DNA of 64,000 nt from Bacteroidales bacterium (GTDB taxonomy: Bacteria > Bacteroidota > Bacteroidia > Bacteroidales > UBA7960). Of the stretch, positions 42,767 through 60,413 are shown one piece after another. The position numbers were made by a program, and so were the translations under genes. Each line of letters starts with the position of its first letter. Position 1 is the first letter of the stretch. The DNA is taken from contig SLKR01000042.1 of the NCBI GenBank assembly GCA_007134525.1, forward strand, positions 3,672 through 67,671, read 5' to 3'. The notes under the pieces were generated by a model. The model was not told the origin of the DNA. It did no database searches and worked only from the letters and a program-made list of their open reading frames with translations.

Positions 42767-45631
42767 TTACTTCCTTTTTATTATCATTTCAGAGGCATTT
42801 ACCTGAGGGCCGCTTATTTTCAGAAGGTATAACCCGCTCTGGCTTCCGGCACCGTTAAGTCCGATGATATAACGGCCCCCCTGATCCGGAATCAACCTGC
42901 TGCTTTTCACCAATCTTCCCTGTATGTCAAAAACTCTCAACAGGTGCTCAACAGATATACCCCTGCCAATATCAATCGTGAATACATCATTGAAAGGATT
43001 CGGATATATGACAATATCATCGGGGTAAGTCAGGGTTGCTTCGAGCGGTTTATCCTCAATCATACTGTAGTAGTCCGCTGCCCTGAATGTATTGCCGGTC
43101 ATTGTTTCAAGGTCTTCAGCCAACTGGACAGCAAATGCCAGGCTCAGGGTATCGCCCGGGGCCAGTATGTGTGGTCCGCTGCCTATCAGTGAAGAGATAC
43201 TGTTATCCTCTTTGTAACTTCCTGCTTGCATACGGTTTGAGGTAAGCGCGGTAAACTTCTTAAAGTCTGTAAACCCATTGTTTATCCTTATACTCCCTCC
43301 ACTACCCTGGTTGTCAAAGGCATAATGCCTGAGCGGCATGTGGTTGAGAAGCTGCAATCCCGCGTAATTCCCCCCTTCTTCTGAATAACTGTAGGCAAGC
43401 CTGGTTGCCACATCGATTGCAGCCCTGTGCTGTTTATTGTCCCTCAGAACCCAGTCGGCAAAAAACCCGATATAAAGGGATCCAAACTCTACTGCTGACT
43501 CATTTATTATATCATAGTCAATTATGAAGAAATCTTCAGGTACATCATCATTCCAGAAATATGCATTGTAATTGACAACAATACCAAGGGGTCTTTTGCC
43601 GCTTTCAGAGAGATCAGACAGGCTTCCGCTGACCTTTACCGGAGCAATGGGATTATCATAGCTTATAACGGGAAGTGTAAGAGGATGCAGGCTGTTGCTG
43701 AAGCTGGCTGAATCAGCGCCATAGATATTGTCTGCAACCTCAAATACACTGTTGGCTATAAGAATTCCTGCACAACTTACTGCTGTATAACCGTTTCTGT
43801 AGATCAGCCCCCTGCCCTGGGAGTAGTCAGGATAATTGAAGCCAATTGCACCTCTGGATGATATTGTAGTGCTAATTGGCCCGGCATCAATATTCACATA
43901 GTCTGCGTTAAGTATCCTGCTGAACGACTGCCTGCCTGCAAGCCGGTTATCAGAGTCATAAAACCGAAGGGTGAACACAACATCGTGGTTTGCAGGAATA
44001 TCTCCGGAAACACTTATTATAAATGGATCTTCAGTATTATCAAAGGTCTCGTATGTTGAAAGTGGCCCTATAAACAAAGTGTCTGAGAGAACCTCTGTCA
44101 ATTCGCAATCAGTTTCGAGTACGGCCCTTAAGATTCCTGACGACGACAGCAGGTTCTTCATCCTGAATGACAGATCAAGTTGCTGTCCTGGTCTAAGCGA
44201 TAAAAACTCATCCTCAGGCTGAAGGTATTCACAGACTGTGATATAAGGGCGGTGATCCTCTGTCAGTGAACGAAAAAGGTTGATGCGTCCATACCCGAGC
44301 TGCCCCCGGTATTCACCGTTGTCTTCAACTTCATCTGTGCTGTCGGCCGTTATCTTCATCAAGGCGGCTATCTGCATTGCATCCATCTCAGGAAAGAATG
44401 ACCTCAGTATCGCAGCTGCTCCGGCAACTACTGGCGCTGCCATAGAGGTACCTCCCGAAAACAAATAAGTGTCGTTTACCCAGGTTGACAACATCCTTAC
44501 CCCGGGTGCGGTAAGATCAACATACGGGCCGTAACTAGAAAAACCTGTTTTGCTGTCAAGGCTGTCAACAGCTGCAACACTCAATACATTCTCCAGTGAA
44601 GCAGGATAAAATGGGTCATCATTCCCGGAATTTCCTGCAGCAGCAACCACAAGCGCATCCTGGTTCAATACCGCATAGTCGATTATATCACTGGCAAATG
44701 GACCCGGGTTGAAGTGACTGCCCCATGAGCAGTTTATTACTGATGCACCCTGGTCGGCAGCATAAACAATGCCCTCATAAGCCCTCACCAGCCGGCCGAA
44801 CTCATCATCGACCTTGACGGGCAGGAACTTCGAATGGTACCCTACACCTGCAATTCCAATCCCATTATCGGGGGTTGCTGCAGCAATGCCGGAAACGTGC
44901 AGCCCGTGCGCTGAATTATTGAAGCTTGGGTCATTGTTCCCCTCGCCAAGATCCCAACCGTAAAAATTGTCAACATACCCGTCCCCGTCTGAATCCTCAC
45001 CATTTACCGGGTCATTATAATTGTATTTGATCGCTTCTGCAAGATCGGGGTGAGTCAGTGAAACACCGGTGTCAACTATCCCTATCACTGTATTTGTATC
45101 ACCCCGGCTTATTGCCCAGGCACTGAATGCTTCAATACTCTCAAGGTAATACTGGTCGGGGAGCAGTGGGTCGTCCGGATAATGCATATCTGGAACTTCG
45201 TATGTAAAATTCATAAGCTCCGGCAAATAGCGTTTCTGAACATATTCAACCATACCTGTTGAAGCTATCTCCCTGATAAGCTCATTGGCCGACCTGTCGC
45301 TTCCTGTAACAACTTCATAAATCCTTGAAAGGTCGGCAAAAGGCCTTCCCGAAGGATGGTATTTTACCGCAGGGGCTCTGTGATCCGGAAATAACCTGTA
45401 CGGCCCGTCAAGGGCCTTTTGATTGAAAATTCCCGACAGCAGTAGTGGCAGTCCTTTTTCATCCTTCTGTACACCATGCAACCCCTCCCTTAACTTGAAT
45501 ATTACATGCCCCGGCAAAACTGCACTGCCTTCACCCTCATAACGGGATGGGGCTTCTGCCGTTGACTGAAGCAGCGGAAAAAGAGAATATAAAAGGACAA
45601 TAACCAATATCCGTTTCACATAGATTGACAT
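42767..45631 (-). CDS. S8 subtilisin-like serine peptidase, secreted, T9SS cargo
   Basis: Catalytic triad contexts IGIVDTGV (Asp), HGLHVSGI (His), GGTSMAAP (Ser). Signal peptide present. C-terminal CTD. Confidence 0.9.
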   Translation of the reverse strand: MSIYVKRILVIVLLYSLFPLLQSTAEAPSRYEGEGSAVLPGHVIFKLREGLHGVQKDEKGLPLLLSGIFNQKALDGPYRLFPDHRAPAVKYHPSGRPFADLSRIYEVVTGSDRSANELIREIASTGMVEYVQKRYLPELMNFTYEVPDMHYPDDPLLPDQYYLESIEAFSAWAISRGDTNTVIGIVDTGVSLTHPDLAEAIKYNYNDPVNGEDSDGDGYVDNFYGWDLGEGNNDPSFNNSAHGLHVSGIAAATPDNGIGIAGVGYHSKFLPVKVDDEFGRLVRAYEGIVYAADQGASVINCSWGSHFNPGPFASDIIDYAVLNQDALVVAAAGNSGNDDPFYPASLENVLSVAAVDSLDSKTGFSSYGPYVDLTAPGVRMLSTWVNDTYLFSGGTSMAAPVVAGAAAILRSFFPEMDAMQIAALMKITADSTDEVEDNGEYRGQLGYGRINLFRSLTEDHRPYITVCEYLQPEDEFLSLRPGQQLDLSFRMKNLLSSSGILRAVLETDCELTEVLSDTLFIGPLSTYETFDNTEDPFIISVSGDIPANHDVVFTLRFYDSDNRLAGRQSFSRILNADYVNIDAGPISTTISSRGAIGFNYPDYSQGRGLIYRNGYTAVSCAGILIANSVFEVADNIYGADSASFSNSLHPLTLPVISYDNPIAPVKVSGSLSDLSESGKRPLGIVVNYNAYFWNDDVPEDFFIIDYDIINESAVEFGSLYIGFFADWVLRDNKQHRAAIDVATRLAYSYSEEGGNYAGLQLLNHMPLRHYAFDNQGSGGSIRINNGFTDFKKFTALTSNRMQAGSYKEDNSISSLIGSGPHILAPGDTLSLAFAVQLAEDLETMTGNTFRAADYYSMIEDKPLEATLTYPDDIVIYPNPFNDVFTIDIGRGISVEHLLRVFDIQGRLVKSSRLIPDQGGRYIIGLNGAGSQSGLYLLKISGPQVNASEMIIKRK
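42770..43015 (-). other. T9SS C-terminal sorting domain of the S8 peptidase
   Basis: IVIYPNPFNDVFTIDIG...GLYLLKISGPQVNASEMIIKRK. Confidence 0.75.
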
Positions 45632-45641
45632 TATCGCTCTG

Positions 45642-46097
45642 TTATGTGTTCAGGTCTTTGTAGCAGGGCACATGGTCAAGAAAGAGCCAGGTTCCGGCCC
45701 CGGTTTCTCTTTTGCAGCAGTAGTGCTCCATTCCGTTTGTAACCACCAGGTAGGATACACCAAAACCATAGTTGTAGCCAGCTATCTGGTCAAAAACCTC
45801 CTTTGTTATCTTTATACCGGCAGCCTTGCACTCAATTATCATTAGTGGCTTTCCTGACCTGCCGAATACTATCGCATCAGCCCGTTTAGGCAATTTATTG
45901 TACCTGAGCCCCGCCTCAACTGCAATAAGCGCCTTTGGGTATCCCCTTTCAATACTAAGCCACCACAGAAAGTTCTGTCTTACCCATTCCTCGGGTGTAA
46001 GCTTTACATAAGCCTTGCGGAAAATATCCCAAACATATGGTTTACCGTCCTTGTCAATGATTTTTATGGGAAAGTCCGGAAGGTTAAGTTCTTGCAT
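45642..46097 (-). CDS. HsdR N-terminal (PD-(D/E)xK-like) domain protein
   Basis: 151 aa. Stand-alone HSDR_N-type domain (ADAIVF...PLMIIECK). No R-M partners are nearby. Confidence 0.6.
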   Translation of the reverse strand: MQELNLPDFPIKIIDKDGKPYVWDIFRKAYVKLTPEEWVRQNFLWWLSIERGYPKALIAVEAGLRYNKLPKRADAIVFGRSGKPLMIIECKAAGIKITKEVFDQIAGYNYGFGVSYLVVTNGMEHYCCKRETGAGTWLFLDHVPCYKDLNT

Positions 46098-47282: not shown

Positions 47283-47693
47283 ATGAATTTCTGGCTGGTA
47301 AAGAGTGAACCATCTGAGTATTCGTGGGAGAGATTCAAAAAGGAAGAACACGCAACGTGGGAAGGCGTAAGGAATTACCAGGCCAGAAACAACCTGAAGT
47401 CGATGAAGAAAGGCGACCTGGTGCTGTTTTATCACAGCGTTTCAGACAGGAGTGTAATTGGGATAGCAAAGGTCGTCAGGGAGTCTTACCCCGACCCTAC
47501 CGCCGGCGACAACAAGGGCTGGGTAGTGGTTGACCTGGTTCCTGAAAAAGACCTTGAAAAGCCCGTCAGCCTTTCAATGATAAAGTCAGACCCCAGGCTT
47601 GCAAACATTGCCCTGATAAAACAGGGCAGACTTTCAGTAATGCCTCTGAAACGGGAGGAGTTCGATGCGATCGTAGAACTGGGCTCCCGATAA
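47283..47693 (+). CDS. EVE (PUA-like) domain protein
   Basis: 136 aa. Begins MNFWLVKSEP...WEGVRNYQARNNL...GDLVLFYHS, which is typical of EVE/DUF55. Confidence 0.8.
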   Translation: MNFWLVKSEPSEYSWERFKKEEHATWEGVRNYQARNNLKSMKKGDLVLFYHSVSDRSVIGIAKVVRESYPDPTAGDNKGWVVVDLVPEKDLEKPVSLSMIKSDPRLANIALIKQGRLSVMPLKREEFDAIVELGSR

Positions 47694-48212: not shown

Positions 48213-49634
48213 TCACGCATTATCCTCAATACTATGTGCAGCCTCTTTTAACAACCTCCATGCCAGTTCGACATGCATTTTAGATGTTGCCCTCTGCCCA
48301 ACAGACATCCGTATGCAGTATTTGCCTCCCAGTACAGTATGGGTCATAAAGACACGACCGGATGAGTTGACCCTTTCCAGTATCTTACGGTTAATACTGC
48401 TCAATTCCTTTTCAGTGTATGTTCCATCGGGTATGTACCTGAAGCAGACAAGACTCAACCTCACAGGGGCGAGCAGCTCAAAATTATTCTCCTTGCCTAT
48501 CCACCTTCCGAACTCTGCGGCCAGATCAATATGCCTTCTGACCATTTCCCTTATGCCCTCAACTCCATATGAACGCAGTACAAACCACAGCTTAAGGGCG
48601 CGGAACCGCCGCCCCAGCTGAATCCCCCAGTCACGATAATTCTTTACGGCATCATCGGCCGCTGTTTTCAGGTATTCAGGCTGTATGCCGAGTGTTTTAA
48701 CCAGTATGTCAGGGTCACGGACAAAATATGCCGAACAGTCAAAATTGGTAAGCATCCACTTATGGGGATTGAAGACAAAGGAGTCGCACTTTTCAGTTCC
48801 CTTCATAAAGCCGCGGTTATCCTGATCTACAGCAGCAGTACCGGCAAATGCCGCATCCACATGCAGCCATATACCGTAACGGCTGCATATATCTGCTATT
48901 TCATCAACCGGATCCATTGCCATTGAAGAGGTTGTACCCAGGGTGGCAACAACACAGGCAGGTTTCAGGCCCGAAGCAATATCATTTTTAATGGCCTGCT
49001 CAAGTGAATCAGGGCACATTGAAAAGTCTCCGCGGGTATCCACCCTCCTGAGATTGTCGCTTCCGTAACCAGCTATCTTTACATCCTTTTCAATACTGGA
49101 ATGGGTTTCCGTACTGGCATAAACTACAAGGGGCTCACGCACACCCTCTCTGTTTGACAAAAACCCGGTTGCTGACTCCCTGGCCGACAGCAGTGCACAA
49201 AGTGAAGCTGTTGAAGCCGTATCCTGTATCACACCCGTAAATGAATCAGGAAGGCCAGTCATCTGCCTCAGCCACTCCATTACTCTCTGTTCAAGTTCTG
49301 TTGCAGATGGAGAGGTCTGCCAGCTCATGCACTGGACTCCAAGGCCTGCGGTAAGCAGTTCGGCCAAAATTGAGGCCGGACTGTTATTGGCGGGGAAATA
49401 TGCGAACCATCCGGGGTGCTGCCAGTGGGTGATTCCCGGCATGATGATGTTCCTGAAATCCATAAAGATCTTATCCATCCCTTCTCCCTTTAAAGGGGGA
49501 GCAGAAGGTATGCGTGACATAATATCTCCAGGGCGGGTTTCGGGCGTTACCGGATATGACCCGGTATTCTCAAGATAATCAGCGAGCCAGTCAATGAACT
49601 CATGACCATGGCGGCGAAAAGATTCTTTGTCCAT
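48213..49634 (-). CDS. Group II PLP-dependent decarboxylase (aromatic-L-amino-acid / tyrosine decarboxylase-like)
   Basis: PLP-lysine motif FNPHKW. HWQHPGWFAYFP N-terminal motif as in DDC/TyDC. 473 aa. Confidence 0.8.
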   Translation of the reverse strand: MDKESFRRHGHEFIDWLADYLENTGSYPVTPETRPGDIMSRIPSAPPLKGEGMDKIFMDFRNIIMPGITHWQHPGWFAYFPANNSPASILAELLTAGLGVQCMSWQTSPSATELEQRVMEWLRQMTGLPDSFTGVIQDTASTASLCALLSARESATGFLSNREGVREPLVVYASTETHSSIEKDVKIAGYGSDNLRRVDTRGDFSMCPDSLEQAIKNDIASGLKPACVVATLGTTSSMAMDPVDEIADICSRYGIWLHVDAAFAGTAAVDQDNRGFMKGTEKCDSFVFNPHKWMLTNFDCSAYFVRDPDILVKTLGIQPEYLKTAADDAVKNYRDWGIQLGRRFRALKLWFVLRSYGVEGIREMVRRHIDLAAEFGRWIGKENNFELLAPVRLSLVCFRYIPDGTYTEKELSSINRKILERVNSSGRVFMTHTVLGGKYCIRMSVGQRATSKMHVELAWRLLKEAAHSIEDNA

Positions 49635-49686: not shown

Positions 49687-50067
49687 TTAAAACGGCAGGT
49701 CATCATCCTGATCCATCGGCGGCAAATCATCATCCTGTGGAGGCGGAGTGTTTAAAAAATGGTCGGGTGTCTGACCCCGCGAAACATCTTCCCCTGATCC
49801 CTTTTCAGCCTTCCATGCCTTTACATCAGTATACCAGCGGCCATTGAACTCACGGCTTTCAACATTCACCGAAAAATTAACTTCTTCTCCTTCACTGATC
49901 CCGAACTGATCTATCTTATCCCCCCATACTGTTACACATACCTTACGGGGGTACTGACCACCAGTTTCAATAATATAATCCTGCTTGCGCCAGGGACCAT
50001 TGCGGCCCTCTCCGCTCTGTTCGGGTAAAACTGAAATCACCCTTCCACTTATTTCCATATCGGCCAT
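49687..50067 (-). CDS. DUF3127 family OB-fold-like protein with SSB-type acidic C-terminal tip
   Basis: MEISGRVISVLPEQSGEG...WRKQDYIIET... matches DUF3127. The C-terminus is PPQDDDLPPMDQDDDLPF. The start may be the second ATG at 50058. Confidence 0.7.
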   Translation of the reverse strand: MADMEISGRVISVLPEQSGEGRNGPWRKQDYIIETGGQYPRKVCVTVWGDKIDQFGISEGEEVNFSVNVESREFNGRWYTDVKAWKAEKGSGEDVSRGQTPDHFLNTPPPQDDDLPPMDQDDDLPF

Positions 50068-50093
50068 ATCTTAAAAGAATTTAGGGAAAATGA

Positions 50094-50101
50094 CAAAATT
50101 A
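50094..50101 (-). promoter_or_regulatory. -7 box (TAatTTTG on the minus strand) for the DUF3127 gene
   Basis: Exact TAnnTTTG match 26 nt upstream of the start at 50067. Confidence 0.3.
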
Positions 50102-50124
50102 ATTCATTTCACCGAGTATGCAAA

Positions 50125-50736
50125 TCATACAGTAAAGCCGCGAACTCCAAACGGTAGTTTGTCATTGCAGGCGATCACCAGTACATTTTCATTGGCCCAC
50201 CTGAATTCCACTGACCCGTTTACATCAAGGCCTGCGGATCTTTCCAGCTCCGATTTTCCCATAAGCTCATTGTCTTTTAAAAACCTCGCTTCAAATTTTG
50301 AGGCATAGTAGGCTTCCATCACCACAAAATTACCGTTTATCATTCGCCATCTGCCCCTTCTGTCGGTTCTCCTAAGCTCATTGAACCTGGGCTGAAGCAA
50401 AAGCTGGCTGGTTTTCAGATATGATCCCTTTATTTCGCTTATATCCAGACTTACACGTAAATCACCTTTTACGGAAGCCTTCAGCGAAAATACCCCGAGT
50501 ATTCTGGCCCCGCCTCCCAGCTTCCTGTCAAGGCTTAAAGTCCCGTATATAATACTTGCATCCGACCTGCCGTACCTCCACGTTTCCTCGGGCTCATCCG
50601 TCAGTATATCCCTGCCGTGACCAAGCAGCCTAAGGCTTTCAGGGTCAAGTATCGCCCCCGGCTCATAACGGGTATTGCTTAATGGAAGGATTCGCAATCC
50701 GGGAACATGTTTCCTGATAAATCTGTAAAAAAGCAT
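50125..50736 (-). CDS. Hypothetical protein, tentatively gasdermin-N-like (pore-forming-domain-like), with no C-terminal inhibitory tail
   Basis: 203 aa with no enzymatic motif. The order of blocks LRILPLSNTRYEPGAIL / Gly-rich SLDRKLGGGARILGVFSLKASV / NGNFVVMEAYYASKFEARF / KLPFGVRGFTV* parallels gasdermin N-domains. It has its own -7 box. Confidence 0.4.
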   Translation of the reverse strand: MLFYRFIRKHVPGLRILPLSNTRYEPGAILDPESLRLLGHGRDILTDEPEETWRYGRSDASIIYGTLSLDRKLGGGARILGVFSLKASVKGDLRVSLDISEIKGSYLKTSQLLLQPRFNELRRTDRRGRWRMINGNFVVMEAYYASKFEARFLKDNELMGKSELERSAGLDVNGSVEFRWANENVLVIACNDKLPFGVRGFTV

Positions 50737-50758: not shown

Positions 50759-50766
50759 CAAATATA
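50759..50766 (-). promoter_or_regulatory. -7 box (TAtaTTTG on the minus strand) for the gasdermin-like ORF
   Basis: Exact TAnnTTTG match 22 nt upstream of the start at 50736. Confidence 0.35.
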
Positions 50767-50883
50767 TTATTTATTTGACACTAGTGGCATTTATTTTTAT
50801 CTATACTTATATTATATGCAAACAAATATCCTATTAGTTATGTCATATTATGCAAGTATCTGGTCTTTTTGAAAATTGTACCT

Positions 50884-50891
50884 TATTTTTG
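50884..50891 (+). promoter_or_regulatory. -7 box (TAttTTTG) for the aldo/keto reductase - mscS unit
   Basis: Exact TAnnTTTG match 30 nt upstream of the ATG at 50922. This supports 50922 as the true start rather than 50850. Confidence 0.35.
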
Positions 50892-50921
50892 ATAATTATA
50901 CCAGGCTTGAAAAAGAGATAT

Positions 50922-51914
50922 ATGAAAAAGATTTCTCCTGATTATAACAATATGGAGTACAGGCGCACAGGCCGGAGCGGCCTCAGGCTTCCTGCACTTT
51001 CGCTGGGGTTGTGGCACAACTTTGGCGCCACCGACGACTACAATACAGGGCGTGAAGTAATTTTGAAAGCGTTTCAGTCAGGGATTACCCATTTTGATCT
51101 TGCTAATAACTACGGTACTCCCCCCGGCAGTGCCGAGGAGAATTTCGGAAGGATGATAGGTGGTGACCTTGCCTCTTACCGCGACGAACTGATTATTTCC
51201 ACTAAGGCCGGATACAGAATGTGGGATGGCCCTTATGGCGACGGAGGCTCCAGGAAGTACCTGCTTAGCAGCCTGGACCAGAGTTTAAGGCGCATGAAGC
51301 TGGAATATGTCGACATCTTTTACTCACACCGGCCAGATGATGAAACTCCGATGGAGGAAACAATGATGGCCCTTGATCAGGCTGTACGCCAGGGAAAGGC
51401 TTTATATGCCGGTATCTCCAACTATACTGACAAGCAAACCAGAAAAGCCGCCGGGATAATGCAAAATCTCGGAACACCATTAATAGTTAACCAGATACGC
51501 TACTCAATGCTTGACCGCAGAGCAGAGTCAGGGCTGCTGGATACACTTGAAGAGCTGGGTACAGGCTGTATTGCTTTTTCACCGCTTGACCAGGGTTTAC
51601 TCACGGCCAAATATCTTGATGGGATACCAGAAGGGTCAAGAGCCGGCAGACCCGACGGCTTCCTGCAGCCATCCCAGATTAGCAGGGAAAAATTAAATAT
51701 TGTAAGGGAGCTGAATAAAATAGCCGCAAAAAGAGGCCAGAGCCTTGCACGTATGGCTGTCGCATGGCTTTTAAAAGACAGCAGGGTAAGCTCGGTACTT
51801 ATTGGCGCCAGATCTATTTCCCAGCTGGAGGAGAACCTACAAAGTTTCAGCGACCCTGGATTTACTGACAATGAGGTAAAAGAAATAAACCAGATTTTTG
51901 AAACCAAATACTAA
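50922..51914 (+). CDS. Aldo/keto reductase (YghZ / Kv-beta-like subfamily)
   Basis: MEYRRTGRSGLRLPALSLGLWHNFG...THFDLANNYG matches the AKR N-terminal signature. About 330 aa from the ATG at 50922. Confidence 0.85.
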   Translation: MKKISPDYNNMEYRRTGRSGLRLPALSLGLWHNFGATDDYNTGREVILKAFQSGITHFDLANNYGTPPGSAEENFGRMIGGDLASYRDELIISTKAGYRMWDGPYGDGGSRKYLLSSLDQSLRRMKLEYVDIFYSHRPDDETPMEETMMALDQAVRQGKALYAGISNYTDKQTRKAAGIMQNLGTPLIVNQIRYSMLDRRAESGLLDTLEELGTGCIAFSPLDQGLLTAKYLDGIPEGSRAGRPDGFLQPSQISREKLNIVRELNKIAAKRGQSLARMAVAWLLKDSRVSSVLIGARSISQLEENLQSFSDPGFTDNEVKEINQIFETKY

Positions 51915-52837
51915 TGAAGAACATAAAAAGGTTCATACTGCCAGTACTGATATTGGTACTGGCTACCTTAATGAAATCAGCAAGTGAAATCCGGCCAGCA
52001 TTTATTGCTGAAGAGTTGTTCGGGCTGATGGGTATACTGGGTTCAATACTACTAATAGCAGGTATATCATGGGTTCTGATAGCAATAATCAGAACTATAA
52101 AGAAAAAGCTGGTCGAAGGTTTTGACATGAACGTCAGCGACAACCTAAGGATGAGGAAGCTGCACACACAGTACAACATACTGGAAAAAGTAATAGTGTT
52201 CATTCTGATAATTATTGCCCTTGGGGTAACCCTTATGCAGTTTGACGGAGTAAGGAGTATAGGGATCAGCATTTTCGCATCAGCAGGGATAGCGGGGCTT
52301 ATAATCGGGCTTGCCGCACAGAAGGCGCTTGGCACTATCCTGGCGGGACTGCAGATAGCAATAACCCAGCCCATCCGGCTCGATGATGTCGTAATAGTTG
52401 AGAATGAATGGGGCTGGATTGAAGAAATAAATCTTACTTATGTAGTTATACGCATCTGGGATAAAAGGAGGCTGGTGGTGCCTTCTACATACTTTCTCGA
52501 AAGGGCCTTCCAGAACTGGACACGTACTTCTGCTGAAATACTGGGCACGGTGTTCATATATACAGATTACACTCTTCCCGTTGGTGCCTTAAGGGATGAA
52601 CTCAGCCGTATCCTCAGGGAGAGCAGCAAATGGGATGGGAATGTCAATGTGCTCCAGGTAACAGATGCAAGGGAAAACACATTGGAAATAAGGGCTCTTA
52701 TGAGTGCAGCCAACTCGCCGGAGGCATGGGACCTCAGGGTTTATGTTAGGGAAAAACTGATAGAGTATATTCAACGGGAGTACCCGCATTGCCTGCCTAA
52801 AACCAGGCTGGTTATGGACAAAAAACCAAATCAATAA
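51914..52837 (+). CDS. Mechanosensitive ion channel, MscS family
   Basis: Three TM helices followed by an MscS beta-domain (QPIRLDDVVIVENEWGWIEEINLTYVVIRIWDKRRLVVP). The TAATG start overlaps the AKR stop. Confidence 0.85.
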   Translation: MKNIKRFILPVLILVLATLMKSASEIRPAFIAEELFGLMGILGSILLIAGISWVLIAIIRTIKKKLVEGFDMNVSDNLRMRKLHTQYNILEKVIVFILIIIALGVTLMQFDGVRSIGISIFASAGIAGLIIGLAAQKALGTILAGLQIAITQPIRLDDVVIVENEWGWIEEINLTYVVIRIWDKRRLVVPSTYFLERAFQNWTRTSAEILGTVFIYTDYTLPVGALRDELSRILRESSKWDGNVNVLQVTDARENTLEIRALMSAANSPEAWDLRVYVREKLIEYIQREYPHCLPKTRLVMDKKPNQ

Positions 52838-52847
52838 TATAATTCAT

Positions 52848-54212
52848 ATGTTGGAATCTGTAAATCCGGCCACAGGCAAAACAATAGCCAGATACGAAGA
52901 GCATTCGGCTGATGAGATAAATTCGATAACGGAGAATGCGGTTCATACGCAACAACTCTGGGAGGATGAAAGTATCGCCAGTCGCTCCGAAAAGATGAGA
53001 GTTGCAGCATACCTGCTGCGAAGGGACAAAGAGCGATACGCGGTAATGATAACTTCGGAGATGGGCAAGCCGGTTGTACAGGCACGCCAGGAGGTTGAGA
53101 AATGCGCAATGGTTTGCGAATACTATGCCGACAAAGCCGGAGATTTCCTCTTAAATGAGTATATAGAAACTGAAGCCAAAAGCAGCTACGTGGCATACCG
53201 CCCTCTTGGGGTGATACTTGGGATAATGCCCTGGAATTTTCCGTTCTGGCAGGTATTCAGGTTTGCCGTTCCGTGTATTATGGCTGGCAATACAGTATTG
53301 CTAAAACACGCCTCAAACGTATATGGCTCCGCCCTGGCTATTGAAGGCATATTCAGGGAGGCAGGTTTTCCTGAGAACCTTTTCGGCGTGCTGAAAATAC
53401 CAGGAAAAAAGGCAGGCGACATCATAGGGAACCAGCATATTAAGGGTGTCAGCCTTACGGGCAGTGTTGGTGCAGGAAGGGCGGTTGCATCCAGGGCAGG
53501 ATCAATGCTGAAAAAAACTGTTTTGGAGCTGGGCGGCAGCGACCCCTATATTGTACTAAGGGATGCAAATCTTGAAAATGCTATCGAAAAGTGCGTAAGC
53601 AGCCGCCTTATAAACAACGGGCAGAGTTGCATCTCTGCAAAACGCTTTATTATTGAGGAGAGCATCTACAGTGATTTTGAAGAGGGGTTCACCGAACTTA
53701 TGAAAAGTAAGTTAATGGGCGATCCAATGAGTGATGATACTGATCTTGGGCCACAGGCAAGTACCGGGCTAAGGGACGAACTTCACCAGCAAGTTGCAGT
53801 GTCAGTAAAAAAAGGTGCCAGATGCCTTCTGGGAGGTACCATACCCGGAATAAAAGGTGCCTGGTACCCCGCAACCGTACTCTCAGGGGTAATGCCGGGA
53901 ATGCCGGCATACGATGAAGAGACTTTCGGGCCTGCAGCTGCCCTGATAAGGGTAAGGGATGAGAAAGAGGCAATAGCAGTGGCCAATGACAGTGTATTCG
54001 GGCTTGGCGGTGCAATATTTACCGAAAACCTTGAAAAGGGCCGGAATATTGCCGAAAGGCTTTTGAAGGCGGGCTGCTGCTTTGTAAACGATATGGTAAG
54101 GTCAGATCCACGGCTTCCGTTCGGCGGGATCTCAGACAGTGGTTTCGGCCGGGAACTTTCGCATCACGGCATAAGGGAGTTCACAAATATTAAAACGGTT
54201 TATATAAAGTAA
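52848..54212 (+). CDS. NAD(P)-dependent succinate-semialdehyde dehydrogenase-like aldehyde dehydrogenase
   Basis: ALDH catalytic contexts ELGGSDP (Glu) and NNGQSCISAKRF (Cys). 454 aa. Confidence 0.8.
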   Translation: MLESVNPATGKTIARYEEHSADEINSITENAVHTQQLWEDESIASRSEKMRVAAYLLRRDKERYAVMITSEMGKPVVQARQEVEKCAMVCEYYADKAGDFLLNEYIETEAKSSYVAYRPLGVILGIMPWNFPFWQVFRFAVPCIMAGNTVLLKHASNVYGSALAIEGIFREAGFPENLFGVLKIPGKKAGDIIGNQHIKGVSLTGSVGAGRAVASRAGSMLKKTVLELGGSDPYIVLRDANLENAIEKCVSSRLINNGQSCISAKRFIIEESIYSDFEEGFTELMKSKLMGDPMSDDTDLGPQASTGLRDELHQQVAVSVKKGARCLLGGTIPGIKGAWYPATVLSGVMPGMPAYDEETFGPAAALIRVRDEKEAIAVANDSVFGLGGAIFTENLEKGRNIAERLLKAGCCFVNDMVRSDPRLPFGGISDSGFGRELSHHGIREFTNIKTVYIK

Positions 54213-54215
54213 ACC

Positions 54216-56399
54216 TTACTCCCCGAGCTTTCTCAGAAGGCTTATGGCATCCTTCTGTTCCTTGATTATATATTTGGCTGCAGTCTGGGAAAGCCCCACC
54301 TTAACTGACCATGCATGCTCAGGCATTGTCTGGAACAACAGTTCATCAGACCAGCCTGCACCAATAGCAAGTATAAAGTCATACTCCTTCCTTGAGAGCC
54401 AGTGCATTGCCAGCTCACCCTTGTTTATACCCGAGTTGCTTACCTCTATAACCTTGCTGCCGTGAATTACATGGGCACTTATATTGGTTGTGATCGAAAG
54501 CAAATGGTCATTTACCTCCTTGACAAGTTGTGATGCCTGTTCGATATCAGCACGGTGGTAATGCCACGCAACCGAATAATCCCGCTCCTGTATAAAGGAT
54601 CCAGGAAGCCTGTCGGTATACATCTCCAGTATTGGGATTACCTCATCCTTCCACTCTGAGGAGAGTGGCTTCAGAAGTCTCCACTCCTTGCGGCCGGCTT
54701 CACGTATCCACGACCCGTGCTCTGCCGTTAGGTTTATGGGCAGCTCTCCCAACCACTCATCAAGTTCATCCTTGCCCCTGCCGCTTATTATCACAATATC
54801 GGTCTTTACCTGGGAGTCCAGTGTCTCCAGCAGGCCAAGCAGTGCATCAGGCGGTTCGGCCATTGCGGGGTACTTGGTAAAAGGTACCAGTGTCCCGTCA
54901 TAATTGACGATCACTATGCGGTTTTTCGAGCCCCTGTACTCCGATACCAGTTTTTTATACAGTTCCGGATCAAGGAACTTCTTGCTCAGTGAGTCCCTTG
55001 TCACCCTGGTGTTCTCGACCAGCGCGTTCACAAAATCATTGGCCCACTTGGTAACATCATACCTTTTAAGCCTCTTTTGCATTATCTTATTCCTCCTTAT
55101 CTGGTCCTTAACAGGAATTACAAGGGCCTCAGAAATGGAATCAGCTATCTCGTCAATATTGTTGGGATTGATTATTACCGATTCGCTCAGCTCCTTTGCC
55201 GCACCGGTAAATTCACTCAGAATAAGCACACCCTTCTGGTCCCTGAGCGATGCTATATACTCCTTGGCTACCAGGTTCATTCCGTCTCTAAGCGGGGTAA
55301 GCAGAGCAACATGGCTTTTGCGGTACTGGGCAATGAGCTGTTTGTGCGGCAGGCTTGTATACTGGTAAATAACCGGGGTCCAGTCCATGCTGCCGAAGTT
55401 TCCGTTAATCTGCCCGACAAGCTCATCAAGCCTGCTCTTGATCTTCTTATATGACCCAACCCCTGTCCTCGAAGGAACAACTATCATGTTCAGGTATACT
55501 TTCCCGATCCATTCCGGGTTCTTCTCCAGAAACAGCTCAAACCCCTTGAGCCTGTTAATTATACCTTTTGAATAGTCGAGACGGTCGACCGAGAGCACCA
55601 TTTTCCTTTTTGGGTTTTTAGTGGTAATGTGGGGCGATACATTCATGGTGTTGAACTTATTGAAGTCAATCCCCATAGGGAAGGTTTCAGCTTCAACTGT
55701 ATGATCAGGCATAGATATTCTGCCCATATGATTTTCCTTGCCCAGTATCCTGAGGACACAACGCAGGAAGTGCTGGGTGTAGTCGTGTGTGTGGAAACCC
55801 ACCAGATCGGCTCCAATCAACCCTTCAAGTATTGCTGTACGGCTTTCTTTGTGCAGCATACGGTACATTTCGTAGGAAGGGAATGGTATGTGAAGAAAAA
55901 AACCTATCGGATTTTGCACCTTTTCACGCAGCAGTGCCGGCAAAAGCATAAGATGGTAATCATGTATCCATATAATATCGTCCTCCCTTAGCTCTTTAAG
56001 CACCTCATCCCTGAATATCTCATTCATCCTCTTGTATTCCTCCCAGAATTCAAGGTCAAAACGTGCATAATTCGGAAAATAATGGAAAAGCGGCCAAATG
56101 GTCCTGTTGCAAAAACCCAGGTAGACCTTGTCCATAAGTTTTTTTGACAGAAACACCGGCGAAGCGTTAAACTCTTCCCTGACCCTGTCCCTTAAATGGT
56201 CTTCATCTTCCTTTTCCACGCTGTTTCCCGGCCAGCCCATCCATACATACTCCTTTATTTCAGATTTGTTTTTGCCGAGTCCAGCCAAAAAATCGCTCAT
56301 TCCGGAAACCAGCCCGCCTGCGCTCTTGGTCATGGTAAACTCTCCGTTATCCTTGCTCACCACTACCGGCAAACGATTAGATACTATCAGTAGCCTCAT
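54216..56399 (-). CDS. otsA: Bifunctional trehalose-6-phosphate synthase (GT20) / trehalose-6-phosphate phosphatase fusion
   Basis: N-terminal MRLLIVSNRLPVVV GT20 signature. The C-terminal HAD-IIB module has IVIVNYDGTLVPF. 727 aa. Confidence 0.85.
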   Translation of the reverse strand: MRLLIVSNRLPVVVSKDNGEFTMTKSAGGLVSGMSDFLAGLGKNKSEIKEYVWMGWPGNSVEKEDEDHLRDRVREEFNASPVFLSKKLMDKVYLGFCNRTIWPLFHYFPNYARFDLEFWEEYKRMNEIFRDEVLKELREDDIIWIHDYHLMLLPALLREKVQNPIGFFLHIPFPSYEMYRMLHKESRTAILEGLIGADLVGFHTHDYTQHFLRCVLRILGKENHMGRISMPDHTVEAETFPMGIDFNKFNTMNVSPHITTKNPKRKMVLSVDRLDYSKGIINRLKGFELFLEKNPEWIGKVYLNMIVVPSRTGVGSYKKIKSRLDELVGQINGNFGSMDWTPVIYQYTSLPHKQLIAQYRKSHVALLTPLRDGMNLVAKEYIASLRDQKGVLILSEFTGAAKELSESVIINPNNIDEIADSISEALVIPVKDQIRRNKIMQKRLKRYDVTKWANDFVNALVENTRVTRDSLSKKFLDPELYKKLVSEYRGSKNRIVIVNYDGTLVPFTKYPAMAEPPDALLGLLETLDSQVKTDIVIISGRGKDELDEWLGELPINLTAEHGSWIREAGRKEWRLLKPLSSEWKDEVIPILEMYTDRLPGSFIQERDYSVAWHYHRADIEQASQLVKEVNDHLLSITTNISAHVIHGSKVIEVSNSGINKGELAMHWLSRKEYDFILAIGAGWSDELLFQTMPEHAWSVKVGLSQTAAKYIIKEQKDAISLLRKLGE

Positions 56400-56413
56400 C
56401 TTATATTATTATT

Positions 56414-58837
56414 TTAGTTTTTAATTGAAAACTCTTTTTCGTCATCAGTTTCAAGGTAATATTTACGTCCTCCCACACCAATATATACTGGATTGGCCCA
56501 TCCCCTGCAAAACTTCAGCCTTAATTTGTCCCTGCCAATATCCAGTTTTATCCAGTGGCTCCTGTAGCGCACATGGAATGAAATTGAGCTTATGTCGGAG
56601 GGCAGTTTCGGATTGAGCCAGAGGACATCGTCCCTGATCTCCATTCCTGTATAACAGCGTTGCAGTATATCCAGGCTTCCGGCCATTGCCCCAAGGTGTA
56701 TCCCCTCATGGGTGGTGCCCCCCTGTATATCCCTGAAATCACTCATAAGTGCAGTTTTAAAACTCTTCCATGAACGTTCGCGGTGGCTCCTTGCATAAAC
56801 CCAGGCATGTATAACCTGGCTCAGCGTGGATCCGTGTGAAGTCCTCCGGTAATAATAATCTATGTTTTCGGGTATCATCCCGGCCTTGAGTTCATAGCCG
56901 AGTTTGCCGAACAGAGACTTAAGCTCCTCAAATGAAAAGAGATAGAAAAGCATAAGCACATCAGCCTGCTTGCTCGCCTTGTAAAAATTGGGAGAATCGT
57001 CACTGGCCTCAAGTATCCTGTCGAGCCTGATTGCATTTCCGTATTTCTTTCTGTAATGATCCCAGTTCAGCTCCCTGAGCTCATCATAGCCCTCAAATTG
57101 TGATATTATGCCATCCCCGTGGAAGGGAACGAACATCTTGCCGCTTATCTCCTCCCACCGCTCTTTATCCATTTTTGTGATCCCGATTTTTGCTGCCAGT
57201 TCATCACAGCAGGTCTTATCCAGGATTTCTAGCAGTTTCATGGCACGCTGAATTACCCAGACTGCCATTACATTGGTGTAGGCATTATTGTTCAGCCCGG
57301 CTTTTTCTATTCCCGGATAATGAGTATGGTATTCATCAGGGCCCATAACCCCCAGTATTTCATAACGGTCGCGCTTCGGATTGAAACGGGCGATGTCAGA
57401 CCAGAAAAGGGCCGTTGCAAAAATCATTTCAGCCCCATAGGCATTTAAAAAGTCAGTATCCCCGGTACTCTGGTAATAATGCCATACGTTGTAGGGAATG
57501 GCCAGGTTAATATGATACTGCAGGTGGGAAACATCAGGCAGCCACCTGCCAGACCTGGGGTTAAGATGCATTTTCTGGGTTTCTTCCCTGCCATTGCTGC
57601 CGCTCTGCCAGGGATAAAGCGCACCCCTGAATCCGGCCTGCCGGGCATTTTCAATTGCCTCGGGCAGGCGCCTGTACCTGTACATAAGCAGTGAACGCGA
57701 CAGCTGAGGATAGTGCAGGTCAATGAAAGGCTGTATGTACAATTCATCCCAGAACACATGCCCCCTGTAACCTTCGCCATGCCAGCCACGTGCAGGTATG
57801 CCAATATCGTAATCCATGCTGTTGCGTGAAACCGTCTGGTATAAATGCATGATATGAAGCCGGATCACCAACTGATCAATGCCGCCGGAATCCAGCTTCA
57901 TATCATTGTAGTTCCATATCCTTTCCCATGCCTGCTTCTGCAGCCGGTAAAGCGCGGCAAAGCTATCCATGCGCGATAGCTTGTTCATGGCCTCGGTAAG
58001 GGGGTCACTGATAGCAAAATCCCTCGAAGTATATATTGAAACAAGCTTCTCAATCCTTAACGGATCCAGTTTCCTGCATTCAATACTGAACTCCCCTGCA
58101 ACAGCATCCTTAAGCTTAACAAGCTTTTGCTTCAGGTCAAGCCTCTCCTGGTGTACGTAGAAATTGGTCCTGCAGGCCTGGCTCATTCTTATATCCGACT
58201 GCTTTGTACGGCTGCACAGAAATACGCTGTCTGAATTTATACTGCCCCTGGAGGTTACCTCCAGGTGATTCTGGTTAAGGTCACTGTACCTGGCAACATT
58301 GTTGTTTATGATATTGCCGTCTATTCCGGATCTGACAGTCAGGCGATCATCCCAGTTTTCCGGGATAAGTGTCCACTCTATACCGGCACAGTGGTAGTCT
58401 TCCATGCTCACTATACGCCTGCTTATTATCGTGGTGATATTCCCTTCGCTGTCCTTGAACCGCATCTTTCTTTCCATTACCCCCTCCTTAATGTTGAGAG
58501 TAGTAAGGAATCCAAGTATTTCGACACTGTCAAGGGAGAACCATGGGTTACTGCCTATCCTGAAGGTAAGGAAAAGCCAGTTGGGCCAATTCACAAGATC
58601 TTCATTCTCAATCTCTCTTCCCTGTATTTCCGATTTCATCCTGTTATAACCCCCTGCTAGGTAGGTACCTGGGTAGTTGTAACGGTTGTCTTTCTCCATC
58701 TCCAGTGCACCTCTTGTAACAATATAACCGTTTCCGAGAGCACAGAGGGCTTCCTGAAGGGGATGCTCATCAGCATTCCACTCAGGGTATTCAACAGTCC
58801 AGCTATTTCTGCTACTTTTTCTGTCGCTATCGCTCAT
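56414..58837 (-). CDS. Glycoside hydrolase family 65 phosphorylase (trehalose / kojibiose / trehalose-6-P phosphorylase-like)
   Basis: GH65 motifs GYRGHVFWDELYIQPF and YPWQSGSNGREETQ. The start is taken at the ATG at 58837, 1 nt after the upstream stop. The ORF-track extension to 58909 overlaps the upstream gene. Confidence 0.85.
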   Translation of the reverse strand: MSDSDRKSSRNSWTVEYPEWNADEHPLQEALCALGNGYIVTRGALEMEKDNRYNYPGTYLAGGYNRMKSEIQGREIENEDLVNWPNWLFLTFRIGSNPWFSLDSVEILGFLTTLNIKEGVMERKMRFKDSEGNITTIISRRIVSMEDYHCAGIEWTLIPENWDDRLTVRSGIDGNIINNNVARYSDLNQNHLEVTSRGSINSDSVFLCSRTKQSDIRMSQACRTNFYVHQERLDLKQKLVKLKDAVAGEFSIECRKLDPLRIEKLVSIYTSRDFAISDPLTEAMNKLSRMDSFAALYRLQKQAWERIWNYNDMKLDSGGIDQLVIRLHIMHLYQTVSRNSMDYDIGIPARGWHGEGYRGHVFWDELYIQPFIDLHYPQLSRSLLMYRYRRLPEAIENARQAGFRGALYPWQSGSNGREETQKMHLNPRSGRWLPDVSHLQYHINLAIPYNVWHYYQSTGDTDFLNAYGAEMIFATALFWSDIARFNPKRDRYEILGVMGPDEYHTHYPGIEKAGLNNNAYTNVMAVWVIQRAMKLLEILDKTCCDELAAKIGITKMDKERWEEISGKMFVPFHGDGIISQFEGYDELRELNWDHYRKKYGNAIRLDRILEASDDSPNFYKASKQADVLMLFYLFSFEELKSLFGKLGYELKAGMIPENIDYYYRRTSHGSTLSQVIHAWVYARSHRERSWKSFKTALMSDFRDIQGGTTHEGIHLGAMAGSLDILQRCYTGMEIRDDVLWLNPKLPSDISSISFHVRYRSHWIKLDIGRDKLRLKFCRGWANPVYIGVGGRKYYLETDDEKEFSIKN

Positions 58838-58838
58838 T

Positions 58839-60413
58839 TCAATTATTCGCTTTTTTGTTTTTGTATATCCTGATAAGCTTGCTGAAAAATTCCTGAACCT
58901 GGAAAACATTCTTCAGACTGTAGTCAGCCAGGGTGTCCTGCCCGTGGTTCTCAACCAGGATACCGATACCTCTTCCCTTAAGGACCCGGAAAGCATCCTC
59001 ATCAGTAACATCATCACCAATAAAAACGGGTATAATACCTGATTGTTCTGAAAAACCAAGTTTTTTATAAATCCACATAACAGCCTTGCCCTTGTGCCAG
59101 TCGATATCCGGCTTTATCTCCACCAACATTTTGCCCTCCCCTGTTTTAAGTCCTGAATGCTTCTCCAGCATCTTGTCAACTACCTTAAATACATAGGGTA
59201 CTTCATTTTCCGATGCATTCCGGTAATGAACAGCTATTGCATATCTTTTCCTGTCGATTGTAACACCTTCAGCCTTGCCTTCAATAAGGTCATGCAGGTC
59301 CTTTTCAACCTTGTCCATGAGCTCCATTATCTCCCCGGACTTCTCATGTTCCATTTCCAGCCCGTCAGGGCCTCTGGTAATATAGCCGTGACTGCCGGAA
59401 TAAATAATATTGTCAAGGCGTATGAAATTGCGAACATCTTCCAGGTCTCGTCCGGTTACAACTGATACACTGAATAGCTCAGAGAGTTCTGACAGTGTAT
59501 CGCGCATTCCGTCCGACAATACAGCATCCTCGGGCCTGCTTACAATCGGGGTCAGAGTCCCGTCATAATCAAGGAAGAAGACAGGCTCCTTTTTGGATAA
59601 TCTGTCAAAGATGTCAGTGCTTTCCGAAAAGACCATCGGTTTTGTATAACTAAGGAAATCTGCAATATCCTTATCCCCGAATAGATCAAATCCCTTAAAA
59701 TCCGGGATGCATATGTCGGCACCATTTTTTAAAAGTTCATCGCTGTTGCCGAATCTGGCAACTCCGACTACAAGGCCAAAAAAGCCCTTTTGCCCGGCCT
59801 GTGTACCCGAGACCGCATCCTCAAACACTATGCTTCGCTCCGGCCTGGCATCAAGTTCCCTTGCGGCCTCAATGAATATATCAGGGTCAGGTTTACCTTT
59901 CAGCCCCCTTTCTGCAGATACTGCACCATCAACCCTCACTTCGAAAAGATCCGCAATTCCAGTTTTCTCTAAAATAGTCCTGCAGTTGCGGCTTGAGGAA
60001 ACAATGGCCGTTTTTATGCCTGCACGCTTCCATGTTTTTATTTTTTCAACTGCATCATCGTAAACTTCCACACCTTCATCCCTGATGAGTCTATTGAAGA
60101 GGTAGTTCTTTCTGTTACCTATGGCACAGACGGTTTCATGGCCAGGCGGGTCATTCTCTTCACCAAATGGCAGCTCGATGCCCCTGGATGAAAGAAAACT
60201 CCTTACCCCTTCATACCGGGGTTTGCCATCGACATAGGCGGCGTAGTCCTGTTCGCTGAACTCCCCTGAATGTCCGGCCTCATCAAGGAAATGGTCAAAC
60301 ATCTTTTTCCAGGCCTTTTTATGGGTTTTACGGGTTTGGGTTATTACACCATCCAGGTCGAAAACCAGTGCATCAATATCACCGGGTATGAGTTTTTTAT
60401 TCTCTTTTCCCAT
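58839..60413 (-). CDS. Fusion of beta-phosphoglucomutase-type HAD hydrolase and trehalose-6-phosphate phosphatase-type HAD-IIB domain
   Basis: N-terminal ALVFDLDGVIT (DxDG) with a KGKPDPDIF-type beta-PGM motif. A second HAD module has VFFLDYDGTLTPI and GDDVTDEDAF. 524 aa. Confidence 0.8.
   Translation of the reverse strand: MGKENKKLIPGDIDALVFDLDGVITQTRKTHKKAWKKMFDHFLDEAGHSGEFSEQDYAAYVDGKPRYEGVRSFLSSRGIELPFGEENDPPGHETVCAIGNRKNYLFNRLIRDEGVEVYDDAVEKIKTWKRAGIKTAIVSSSRNCRTILEKTGIADLFEVRVDGAVSAERGLKGKPDPDIFIEAARELDARPERSIVFEDAVSGTQAGQKGFFGLVVGVARFGNSDELLKNGADICIPDFKGFDLFGDKDIADFLSYTKPMVFSESTDIFDRLSKKEPVFFLDYDGTLTPIVSRPEDAVLSDGMRDTLSELSELFSVSVVTGRDLEDVRNFIRLDNIIYSGSHGYITRGPDGLEMEHEKSGEIMELMDKVEKDLHDLIEGKAEGVTIDRKRYAIAVHYRNASENEVPYVFKVVDKMLEKHSGLKTGEGKMLVEIKPDIDWHKGKAVMWIYKKLGFSEQSGIIPVFIGDDVTDEDAFRVLKGRGIGILVENHGQDTLADYSLKNVFQVQEFFSKLIRIYKNKKANN

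Follow-up and report, generated by a model that had tools for sequence, protein, structure and literature searches.

How can a gasdermin be kept in check when it carries neither an inhibitory tail nor a lipid anchor, and no protease is encoded beside it? The question is raised by a 64,000-nucleotide stretch of DNA (hereafter the window) from a Bacteroidales bacterium of the UBA7960 lineage (GenBank assembly GCA_007134525.1, contig SLKR01000042.1, positions 3,672 to 67,671), in which an open reading frame (ORF) on the minus strand, 50125..50736, encodes a gasdermin-like protein of 203 aa. Characterised bacterial gasdermins (bGSDMs) are latent killers, from which a dedicated protease removes a C-terminal brace and in which a palmitoylated Cys stabilises the off-state. 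An earlier note, made from the sequence alone, had read the ORF as an orphan gasdermin N-terminal domain (N-domain) that stops where the autoinhibitory tail should begin. We find that the protein is, very probably, a tail-less member of the bGSDM superfamily. The family to which it belongs is a short branch of that superfamily that retains the whole N-domain, namely the basic alpha-1 helix, the twisted beta-sheet core and both finger regions. This tail-less, protease-less variant of the bGSDM family is real and undescribed; a prokaryotic gasdermin that is tail-less, protease-independent or single-domain is not described in the literature searched, most subscription-journal papers lying outside it. 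Taken as a whole, the observations are best explained by a stand-alone gasdermin-type pore-forming domain that is soluble and triggered without proteolysis, a reading to which we give a probability of roughly 0.55.

Predicted fold and homology to bacterial gasdermins

Two alignments were used throughout, A1 of the close clade (34 sequences) and A2 of the broad family (107 representatives). AlphaFold2 (AF2) models of the window protein reached a pLDDT of 82.1 and a pTM of 0.76 with the former and 90.8 and 0.85 with the latter. When either model was compared with the PDB by Foldseek, the top 10-11 matches were all gasdermins and bGSDMs were the best among them, so the gasdermin-like fold proposed from the sequence held up. 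The top 11 matches of the first model comprised Runella 7n52 (E 3.8e-5), Bradyrhizobium 7n50, Vitiosangium 7n51 and further gasdermins, including the TrichoGSDM pore, bGSDM pore forms, GSDME and the GSDMD pore, with the first non-gasdermin at E 0.023. With the second model six inactive-state bGSDM chains took ranks 1-6, led by 7n51 (E 1.6e-6, probability 1.0, TMq 0.59). The crystal structures 7n51, 7n52 and 7n50 as a group scored E 1.6e-6 to 7e-5 at probability 1.0 and TMq 0.51-0.59, and pore-state structures scored lower (TMq 0.39-0.44). Given that the inactive-state bGSDMs outscore the pore states, the model resembles the bGSDM resting state. Sequence identity in these structural matches is only 13-17%. 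The AF2 weights are, as we take it, older than the 2021 bGSDM structures, so that the gasdermin-like model is not template recall. A viral structure library returned no meaningful match to the model.

Does the sequence itself carry the same signal? Scans of the window protein against Pfam and NCBIfam gave no match, the Pfam Gasdermin model PF04598 giving none even at E up to 10, and phmmer against the PDB returned only noise (a plant NLR protein, E 0.56). The block-by-block correspondence with human GSDMD that had been proposed for this protein is therefore not substantiated in sequence, and the likeness to GSDMD is one of fold only. Against the PADLOC bGSDM model (PDLC02986) the window protein on its own scores E 0.0021, residues 31-199 matching profile positions 34-211 of 257. 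The broad family gives a far stronger signal. Individually, 55 of the 107 representatives match the PADLOC model, the best at 3.4e-11, and the matches checked end at profile positions 208-222 of 257. The A2 profile finds Vitiosangium bGSDM (7n51/8sl0) with hmmsearch at E 1.3e-10 to 2e-10 over chain residues 11-221, and with hhalign at 96.5% probability and E 7e-10 over 196 columns. The significant profile match to the gasdermin family which the earlier note had asked for was thus obtained. A Pfam scan of the 107 members showed nothing relevant, and among precomputed annotations two distant members are weakly labelled PF26164 (Pfam Bact_GSDM). A protein search for full-length canonical bGSDMs with the Runella fragment as query returned no matches.

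Several segments of the protein can be set beside the moving parts of bGSDMs. Residues 3-10 (50707..50730, minus strand) form a basic amphipathic helix, FYRFIRKH, in both AF2 models; it has a helical hydrophobic moment of 1.3-1.65, lacks Cys, and may be the equivalent of the gasdermin alpha-1 'thumb'. Residues 55-107 (50416..50574, minus), made up of a Gly-rich part (61-90) and a long strand (93-107), are the first candidate finger region, which by analogy with the bGSDM structures in PMC10153256 would insert into the membrane; pLDDT dips there to 63-78. The candidate second finger region, residues 108-154 (50275..50415, minus), holds helices 111-133 with the motif DRRGRW, followed by a long strand (137-154). 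The helices thus lie between two long strands, 93-107 and 137-154. During bGSDM activation, helices refold into the beta-strands of membrane fingers (PMC10153256), and helices 111-133 may do likewise. Conserved columns alternate between hydrophobic and polar in 66-107 and 137-153, with a beta moment of up to 2.1 at 89-99. The basic helix, the alternating strands and DRRGRW, which is predicted to lie at a hairpin tip, are compatible with membrane activity, as far as sequence features can indicate it. No signal peptide or transmembrane segment was seen in the hydropathy of the window protein, whose maximum 19-residue Kyte-Doolittle mean is 1.07, and the protein is predicted to be cytoplasmic.

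A family that ends at the last core strand

The ORF runs from an ATG to a TGA at 50125..50127, as had been described. Residues 195-203 (50128..50154, minus) form a terminal strand, PFGVRGFxV, corresponding to Vitiosangium residues ~212-220, and the stop codon follows. In the hhalign alignment residue 7 of the window protein stands opposite Vitiosangium residue 12, and V203 opposite I220 of 266. It follows that the position of the palmitoylated Cys4 falls before Met1, and that the linker, the cleavage site and the inhibitory C-terminal peptide are all absent. Between these ends the N-domains are nearly collinear (~201 residues in the window protein and 211 in Vitiosangium), so no part of the pore-forming machinery appears to be deleted. 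For comparison, in Vitiosangium bGSDM (266 aa) the engineered cleavage site takes the place of P234-M239, and the active construct has 237 aa (PMC10153256); Runella bGSDM is cleaved after L247, releasing 21 aa; and published descriptions give bGSDM inhibitory peptides as 17-67 aa or ~20-40 aa long. The claim that the protein ends exactly where the tail should begin was right in substance, in that it stops at the last core strand, and wrong in its precision, because this point lies ~14-19 residues before the bGSDM cleavage region. The 57-nt spacer between the stop and the next gene (50068..50124, minus) has stop codons in all three frames and therefore hides no coding continuation, in agreement with what had been noted.

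The designation 'orphan' did not survive. A first database search gave 34 close homologs at 34-76% identity, nearly all of exactly 203 aa. A hidden Markov model (HMM), searched exhaustively against 1.84 billion representatives, gave 140 clusters at E<=1e-3 and 80 at E<=1e-10, clusters being defined at 50% identity; a further protein search with the A2 profile gained few new members among the matches listed. In the sources checked, members of these ~140 clusters are nameless or called 'hypothetical protein'. Nearly all the clusters fall between 195 and 235 aa, with a median of 213 aa. Across the family the end of the profile maps 0-12 residues from the end of the protein, and 58 of the 107 representatives stop exactly 9 residues from the conserved Pro, the longest extension being 21. 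Homologs are thus not longer than the window protein in the sense that would have made it a fragment; the conserved lengths and the common end point make its shortness a property of the family.

Three high-scoring or partial matches were set aside. P0049 (2473 aa) is an Ig-like repeat protein of the CFAP65/HYDIN type in which a recurring 'ASIVYGT' mimics a conserved segment of the family; its deep-search score accumulates over these repeats and is an artefact, not homology. P0154 (3800 aa) likewise scored high through many short repeated matches and was treated as an artefact. In P0071 (300 aa) the match to the family is confined to the N-terminal half, which suggests a chimera or a frameshift.

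The 34-sequence alignment has 18 invariant columns. P195 through F201 are invariant, with two residues and the stop coming next; D125, R126, R127, G128 and W130 are invariant or nearly so, and F6 is nearly invariant within the N-terminus MLFYRFI. Among genomic copies the stop directly follows the terminal motif in 17 of 17. For the least saturated pairs the ratio of nonsynonymous to synonymous substitutions (dN/dS, Nei-Gojobori) is 0.06 (dS 0.65) and 0.11 (dS 1.14). The window ORF is a real, intact gene under strong purifying selection. It also has a promoter of its own. TATATTTG (50766..50759, minus), 30 nt upstream of the ATG, conforms to TAnnTTTG, the -7 element recognised by the primary sigma factor in Bacteroidota. 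This box, already pointed out at 50759-50766, recurs at -36 to -38 in 9 of 19 homolog loci, as compared with ~3% of shuffled upstream regions. A conserved consensus promoter makes pure transcriptional silencing an unlikely form of restraint. No intrinsic terminator was detected around the gene, and the window yielded no match in Rfam or tRNA scans.

The statement that there is no Cys near the N-terminus proved correct: C190 is the only Cys of the window protein. In the family at large no Cys column is conserved, 40 of the 107 members lack Cys entirely, and just one has a Cys within its first 10 residues. Since no Cys is conserved, control by disulfide formation, palmitoylation or other acylation was rejected as a family mechanism. 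Residue 41 (50614..50616) is Cys in 85% of the close clade, in the motif GHCR; in the window protein Gly takes its place, and a few further sequences carry Gly or Leu. This clade-specific Cys41 is dispensable in the window copy.

Nor does a protease adjoin any family member in the window, at 23 close loci or at 6 distant loci. The genes around the window copy encode DUF3127, a pyridoxal phosphate (PLP) decarboxylase and an aldo/keto reductase, which bears out the absence of a flanking protease. By comparison, 43 of 50 bGSDMs were reported beside proteases, and bGSDMs were found through analysis of defence islands. The region encodes a single protease, an S8 subtilase (42767..45631) whose gene lies 4.5 kb from the gasdermin-like gene; it has a signal-like N-terminus and a Por_Secre_tail domain of the type IX secretion system (T9SS) and is therefore predicted to be exported. 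We rejected it as an activator, as an exported T9SS-type protein facing a substrate that has no tail to cleave.

Relation to other gasdermins

The closest relatives are the bGSDMs of Runella zeae (7N52), Vitiosangium (7N51/8SL0) and Bradyrhizobium (7N50) (Johnson et al. 2022, 2024), with which the short family shares the fold and profile-level homology over the N-domain. The predicted resting states are alike, with helices at the positions of those bGSDM helices that refold into fingers. The short family differs in lacking the C-terminal inhibitory peptide, the linker and the cleavage site, the N-terminal palmitoylated Cys and the adjacent protease, and its close clade occupies a conserved stretch of housekeeping genes, not a defence island; the window protein is ~35-45 aa shorter than even an activated bGSDM fragment. 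With four defining features absent (tail, Cys, protease and defence-island context), we regard the family as a variant and not as an ordinary branch of bGSDMs. Three of these features had been named in the earlier note as setting the protein apart, and their absence extends from the window copy to the family.

A second point of comparison is offered by engineered bGSDMs of Runella, Vitiosangium and Bradyrhizobium that lack the C-terminal domain (delta-CTD). Stripping canonical bGSDMs of the C-terminal peptide is enough to make them toxic and pore-forming. The delta-CTD proteins, like the short family, are essentially an N-domain alone. However, they are constitutively toxic and keep the Cys and ~15-25 linker residues, whereas the short family has neither and is stably maintained. 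For a natural family to be stable behind a consensus-type promoter, something missing from the truncations must hold it back, whether within the protein or outside it. The short family essentially amounts to a natural, conserved and evidently tolerated 'activated' fragment without the lipid anchor.

Among eukaryotes, N-domain-only gasdermins are known to form pores after non-proteolytic activation, TrichoGSDM through reduction and RCD-1 through heteromerisation. RCD-1 of Neurospora crassa, like the window protein, consists of the N-domain only and is protease-free, but its activity depends on heteromerisation between two antagonistic alleles; at the loci examined the gasdermin-like gene had no second paralog or allele, and the Foldseek match to RCD-1 is poor (E 0.03-1.6). 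TrichoGSDM of Trichoplax adhaerens is a single N-domain mimic of ~250 aa with cleavage-independent activation, as is proposed for the window protein, and its pore 8JYW is among the Foldseek matches (E 3.8e-4 and 1.7e-2). It is autoinhibited as a disulfide-linked dimer and released by reduction, whereas the window protein has one non-conserved Cys; as many members have no Cys at all, the disulfide mechanism cannot apply. With the mammalian N-domains (GSDMD, GSDME and GSDMA3; PF04598) the overall fold is common (GSDMD pore 6VFE, E 1.1e-3; GSDME 9H5M, E 1e-3 to 3e-3), but there is no sequence-level match, and the mammalian proteins carry an alpha-helical C-terminal repressor of ~200 aa and are activated by caspases or granzymes, whereas the window protein has no second domain. 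In architecture the short family parallels RCD-1 and TrichoGSDM, and in structure it is closer to bGSDMs; it probably cannot rely on the switches known for those two, but they are the functional precedent for a tail-less, protease-less bGSDM variant.

How might a tail-less gasdermin be restrained?

In the explanation that we prefer, the protein would be produced from its own housekeeping-type promoter and would rest as a soluble monomer whose inactive-state-like fold is held by intramolecular packing alone. More speculatively, the hydrophobic and aromatic N-terminus MLFYRFI could substitute for the palmitoyl plug. The trigger would be non-proteolytic, most plausibly a change in the lipids or physical state of the inner membrane, or the binding of a partner. 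It would let helices 111-133 and the region 61-107 refold into beta-hairpins, after which the protein would oligomerise and permeabilise the cytoplasmic membrane. What we infer is the trigger, the insertion into the membrane, the assembly into oligomers and the consequence for the cell; that the protein forms lytic pores upon a non-proteolytic trigger we hold only tentatively, at somewhat less than even odds.

A number of observations weigh against this explanation. The close clade alone, when compared with single bGSDM sequences, gives no significance: the A1 profile puts bGSDMs on top in the PDB but at E 0.12-0.15, and hhalign of A1 with one Vitiosangium sequence gives E 0.076, so that the sequence link depends on the broader family. 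TM-scores of 0.5-0.6 signify a common fold and not detailed or mechanistic equivalence. Engineered tail-less bGSDMs are toxic, yet the native gene is stably inherited in a housekeeping neighbourhood and behind a consensus-type promoter, which a non-lytic role explains no less readily than a latent killer would. No consistent partner gene that might hint at the trigger was found at the examined loci. In addition, every family sequence is metagenomic, and none belongs to a cultured host.

The rival that best survives keeps the gasdermin fold and dispenses with lytic pores, giving the protein a non-lethal role at the membrane, such as lipid binding, remodelling or repair, or a small regulated permeability. 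We consider it rather unlikely, though it is the main rival and draws its strength from the housekeeping context and the routine-looking promoter. Vertical inheritance in such a neighbourhood across at least 17 species-level genomes, strong purifying selection and a conserved consensus-type promoter suggestive of routine expression all speak for it, as do the lack of defence genes and proteases near the close clade, the position of a second clade among membrane-transport genes (an efflux operon and an ABC transporter) and not defence genes, and reviews that describe non-pyroptotic functions of gasdermins. On the other hand, the entire pore-forming domain is kept with both finger regions, collinear with a proven pore former; the amphipathic strands and the basic helix are conserved; the protein evolves faster than its neighbours, as genes involved in conflicts often do; and one distant clade adjoins a QatA/PifA-like KAP NTPase.

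A gasdermin controlled by a partner, either through a bound inhibitor or through RCD-1-like heteromerisation, appears distinctly less probable. One candidate partner is the OB-fold-like DUF3127 protein, whose gene comes directly after the gasdermin-like gene, with the same orientation, in the window and at most close loci. RCD-1 provides a precedent for activation of N-domain-only gasdermins by heteromerisation, and several distant members adjoin alpha/beta-hydrolase-type or unannotated genes. The DUF3127 gene is, however, not adjacent at four loci and is inverted or divergent at three, and it has a promoter-like motif of its own; close and distant clades have no common neighbour, and each locus has a single gasdermin-like gene.

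Could the likeness to gasdermins have arisen by chance, or by convergence in a generic beta-sheet protein? The window protein lacks any Pfam or NCBIfam match, its own PADLOC match is weak and its identity to bGSDMs is low, but only gasdermins reach probability 1.0, the next non-gasdermins being 3-4 orders of magnitude weaker, the profile match is full-length and collinear (E 1e-10, hhalign 96.5%), and more than half of the representatives match the bGSDM HMM individually, so that we consider this very improbable. The idea that the ORF is left over from a canonical bGSDM gene, as a truncated copy or pseudogene without its 3' end or any function, to which a length ~40-60 aa below that of characterised bGSDMs and the missing protease partner might point, has almost no probability left and is refuted by the length and end point common to the 34 close homologs and nearly all of the ~140 clusters, by the invariant PFGVRGF and by dN/dS of 0.06-0.11, next to conserved synteny, a conserved promoter and the absence of coding sequence downstream.

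A more far-reaching reading is conceivable that we think unlikely, though less so than partner control. The protein would be a cleavage-independent prokaryotic gasdermin whose own fold restrains it and which responds to the state of the cytoplasmic membrane, possibly of near-ancestral form and with a chromosomally fixed physiological function in place of that of a mobile anti-phage module. If this were true, the near-ancestral form would be that which preceded the addition of inhibitory tail, lipid anchor and protease partnership, and the function in sediment Bacteroidales could be, for example, regulated lysis or permeabilisation under stress.

What would such a family mean for gasdermin biology? 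Either a minimal domain is held off in a new way, by packing, lipid gating or a partner, or gasdermins have non-lytic jobs in bacteria, and either answer bears on the evolution of gasdermin autoinhibition and on the form of the ancestral protein. At 203 aa and free of a protease, the protein is also a very small system in which to study the transition from soluble protein to pore. Finders of defence systems that need a protease neighbour would likely miss the short family. As the PADLOC and Pfam models of bGSDMs weakly touch the family, specialists may have seen such matches.

Genomic context

Related loci were gathered with the close-clade profile A1. The close clade is present in 17 species-level genomes, all of them metagenome-assembled, labelled Bacteroidales (one Cytophagales) and mostly from sediment series. 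Its gene stands in a conserved block with the order gasdermin-like gene, DUF3127, PLP decarboxylase, CvpA, EVE, holA, HSDR_N_2 and S8 subtilase; on the other side lie MscS, aldehyde dehydrogenase and trehalose-phosphate synthase genes or an amidohydrolase pair. PADLOC gave no matches among the immediate neighbours in the close clade, and the block is one of housekeeping genes, not a defence island. The gasdermin-like protein is 45-55% identical between loci, apart from one 76% relative (L011), whereas neighbour proteins are ~55-84% identical, a few partial CvpA matches being lower (loci L011-L027). Its lower identity than that of the flanking proteins indicates that it evolves faster, though it is vertically inherited and its dN/dS is ~0.1.

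In the window the DUF3127 gene (49687..50067, minus; Pfam E 8e-33) lies directly downstream, and the spacer ahead of it contains a second TAnnTTTG-like motif, TAATTTTG (50101..50094, minus). This gene is missing from the adjacent position in L001, L016, L019 and L020, and small rearrangements have left it inverted or divergent in L017, L025 and L027; given these absences and rearrangements, no neighbour is obligatory. The DUF3127 protein ends in a duplicated acidic tip, ...DDDLPPMDQDDDLPF, which presumably resembles the DDDIPF protein-interaction tip at the C-terminus of bacterial single-stranded DNA-binding protein. Further along are a group-II PLP decarboxylase (48213..49634), an EVE-domain protein (47283..47693, plus) and a stand-alone HSDR_N_2 protein (45642..46097, minus), which corresponds to the PD-(D/E)xK-like N-terminus of type I restriction R-subunits. 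The HSDR_N_2 and EVE proteins flank holA, and both are kept in the syntenic block of the clade.

Upstream, an aldo/keto reductase gene (50850..51914) is divergent from the gasdermin-like gene and is followed by a MscS-type mechanosensitive channel (51914..52837). With an aldehyde dehydrogenase, a fused trehalose-6-phosphate synthase/phosphatase (54216..56399) and a GH65 phosphorylase (56414..58909), the channel belongs to a cluster at 51914..58909 that looks like one of osmoadaptation. At L012, L015, L017 and L018 the MscS gene stands directly beside the gasdermin-like gene, in divergent orientation.

More distant members live elsewhere, and at the examined loci no neighbour is common to close and distant clades. 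A clade of 212-aa proteins (L009:5447-6085, L010:1408-2046, L030:3493-4131 and L031:1586-2224) is kept between a MacB/FtsX/OEP efflux operon, similar to MacAB-TolC, and an ATP-binding cassette (ABC) amino-acid transporter (SBP_bac_3/BPD_transp). In several distinct contigs these genes are all on one strand with short gaps, and the gene of the 212-aa clade may be co-transcribed with the membrane-transport genes. The distant member P0169 has a Tle1-like hydrolase as its neighbour and a KAP NTPase two genes downstream. The latter, a KAP-family NTPase of 1430 aa with BNR-like repeats (L007:2328-6620), has PADLOC matches to QatA/PifA/PDC-S20 (E 4e-25), and is the only defence-like context seen for the family. 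Other distant members adjoin a tetratricopeptide repeat (TPR) protein and an alpha/beta hydrolase, adenylosuccinate lyase and an epimerase, or unannotated genes.

Three unrelated distant members each adjoin an alpha/beta-hydrolase-type gene, at L028:1913-2812 (Abhydrolase_1), L007:1142-2146 (Tle1-like/DUF2235, of the type VI secretion system) and L032:2001-3482, the last encoding a 493-aa protein with a weak match to palmitoyl-protein thioesterase (E 5e-5, below the Pfam cutoff). These hydrolase neighbours may be coincidence, or may hint at a lipid-linked control.

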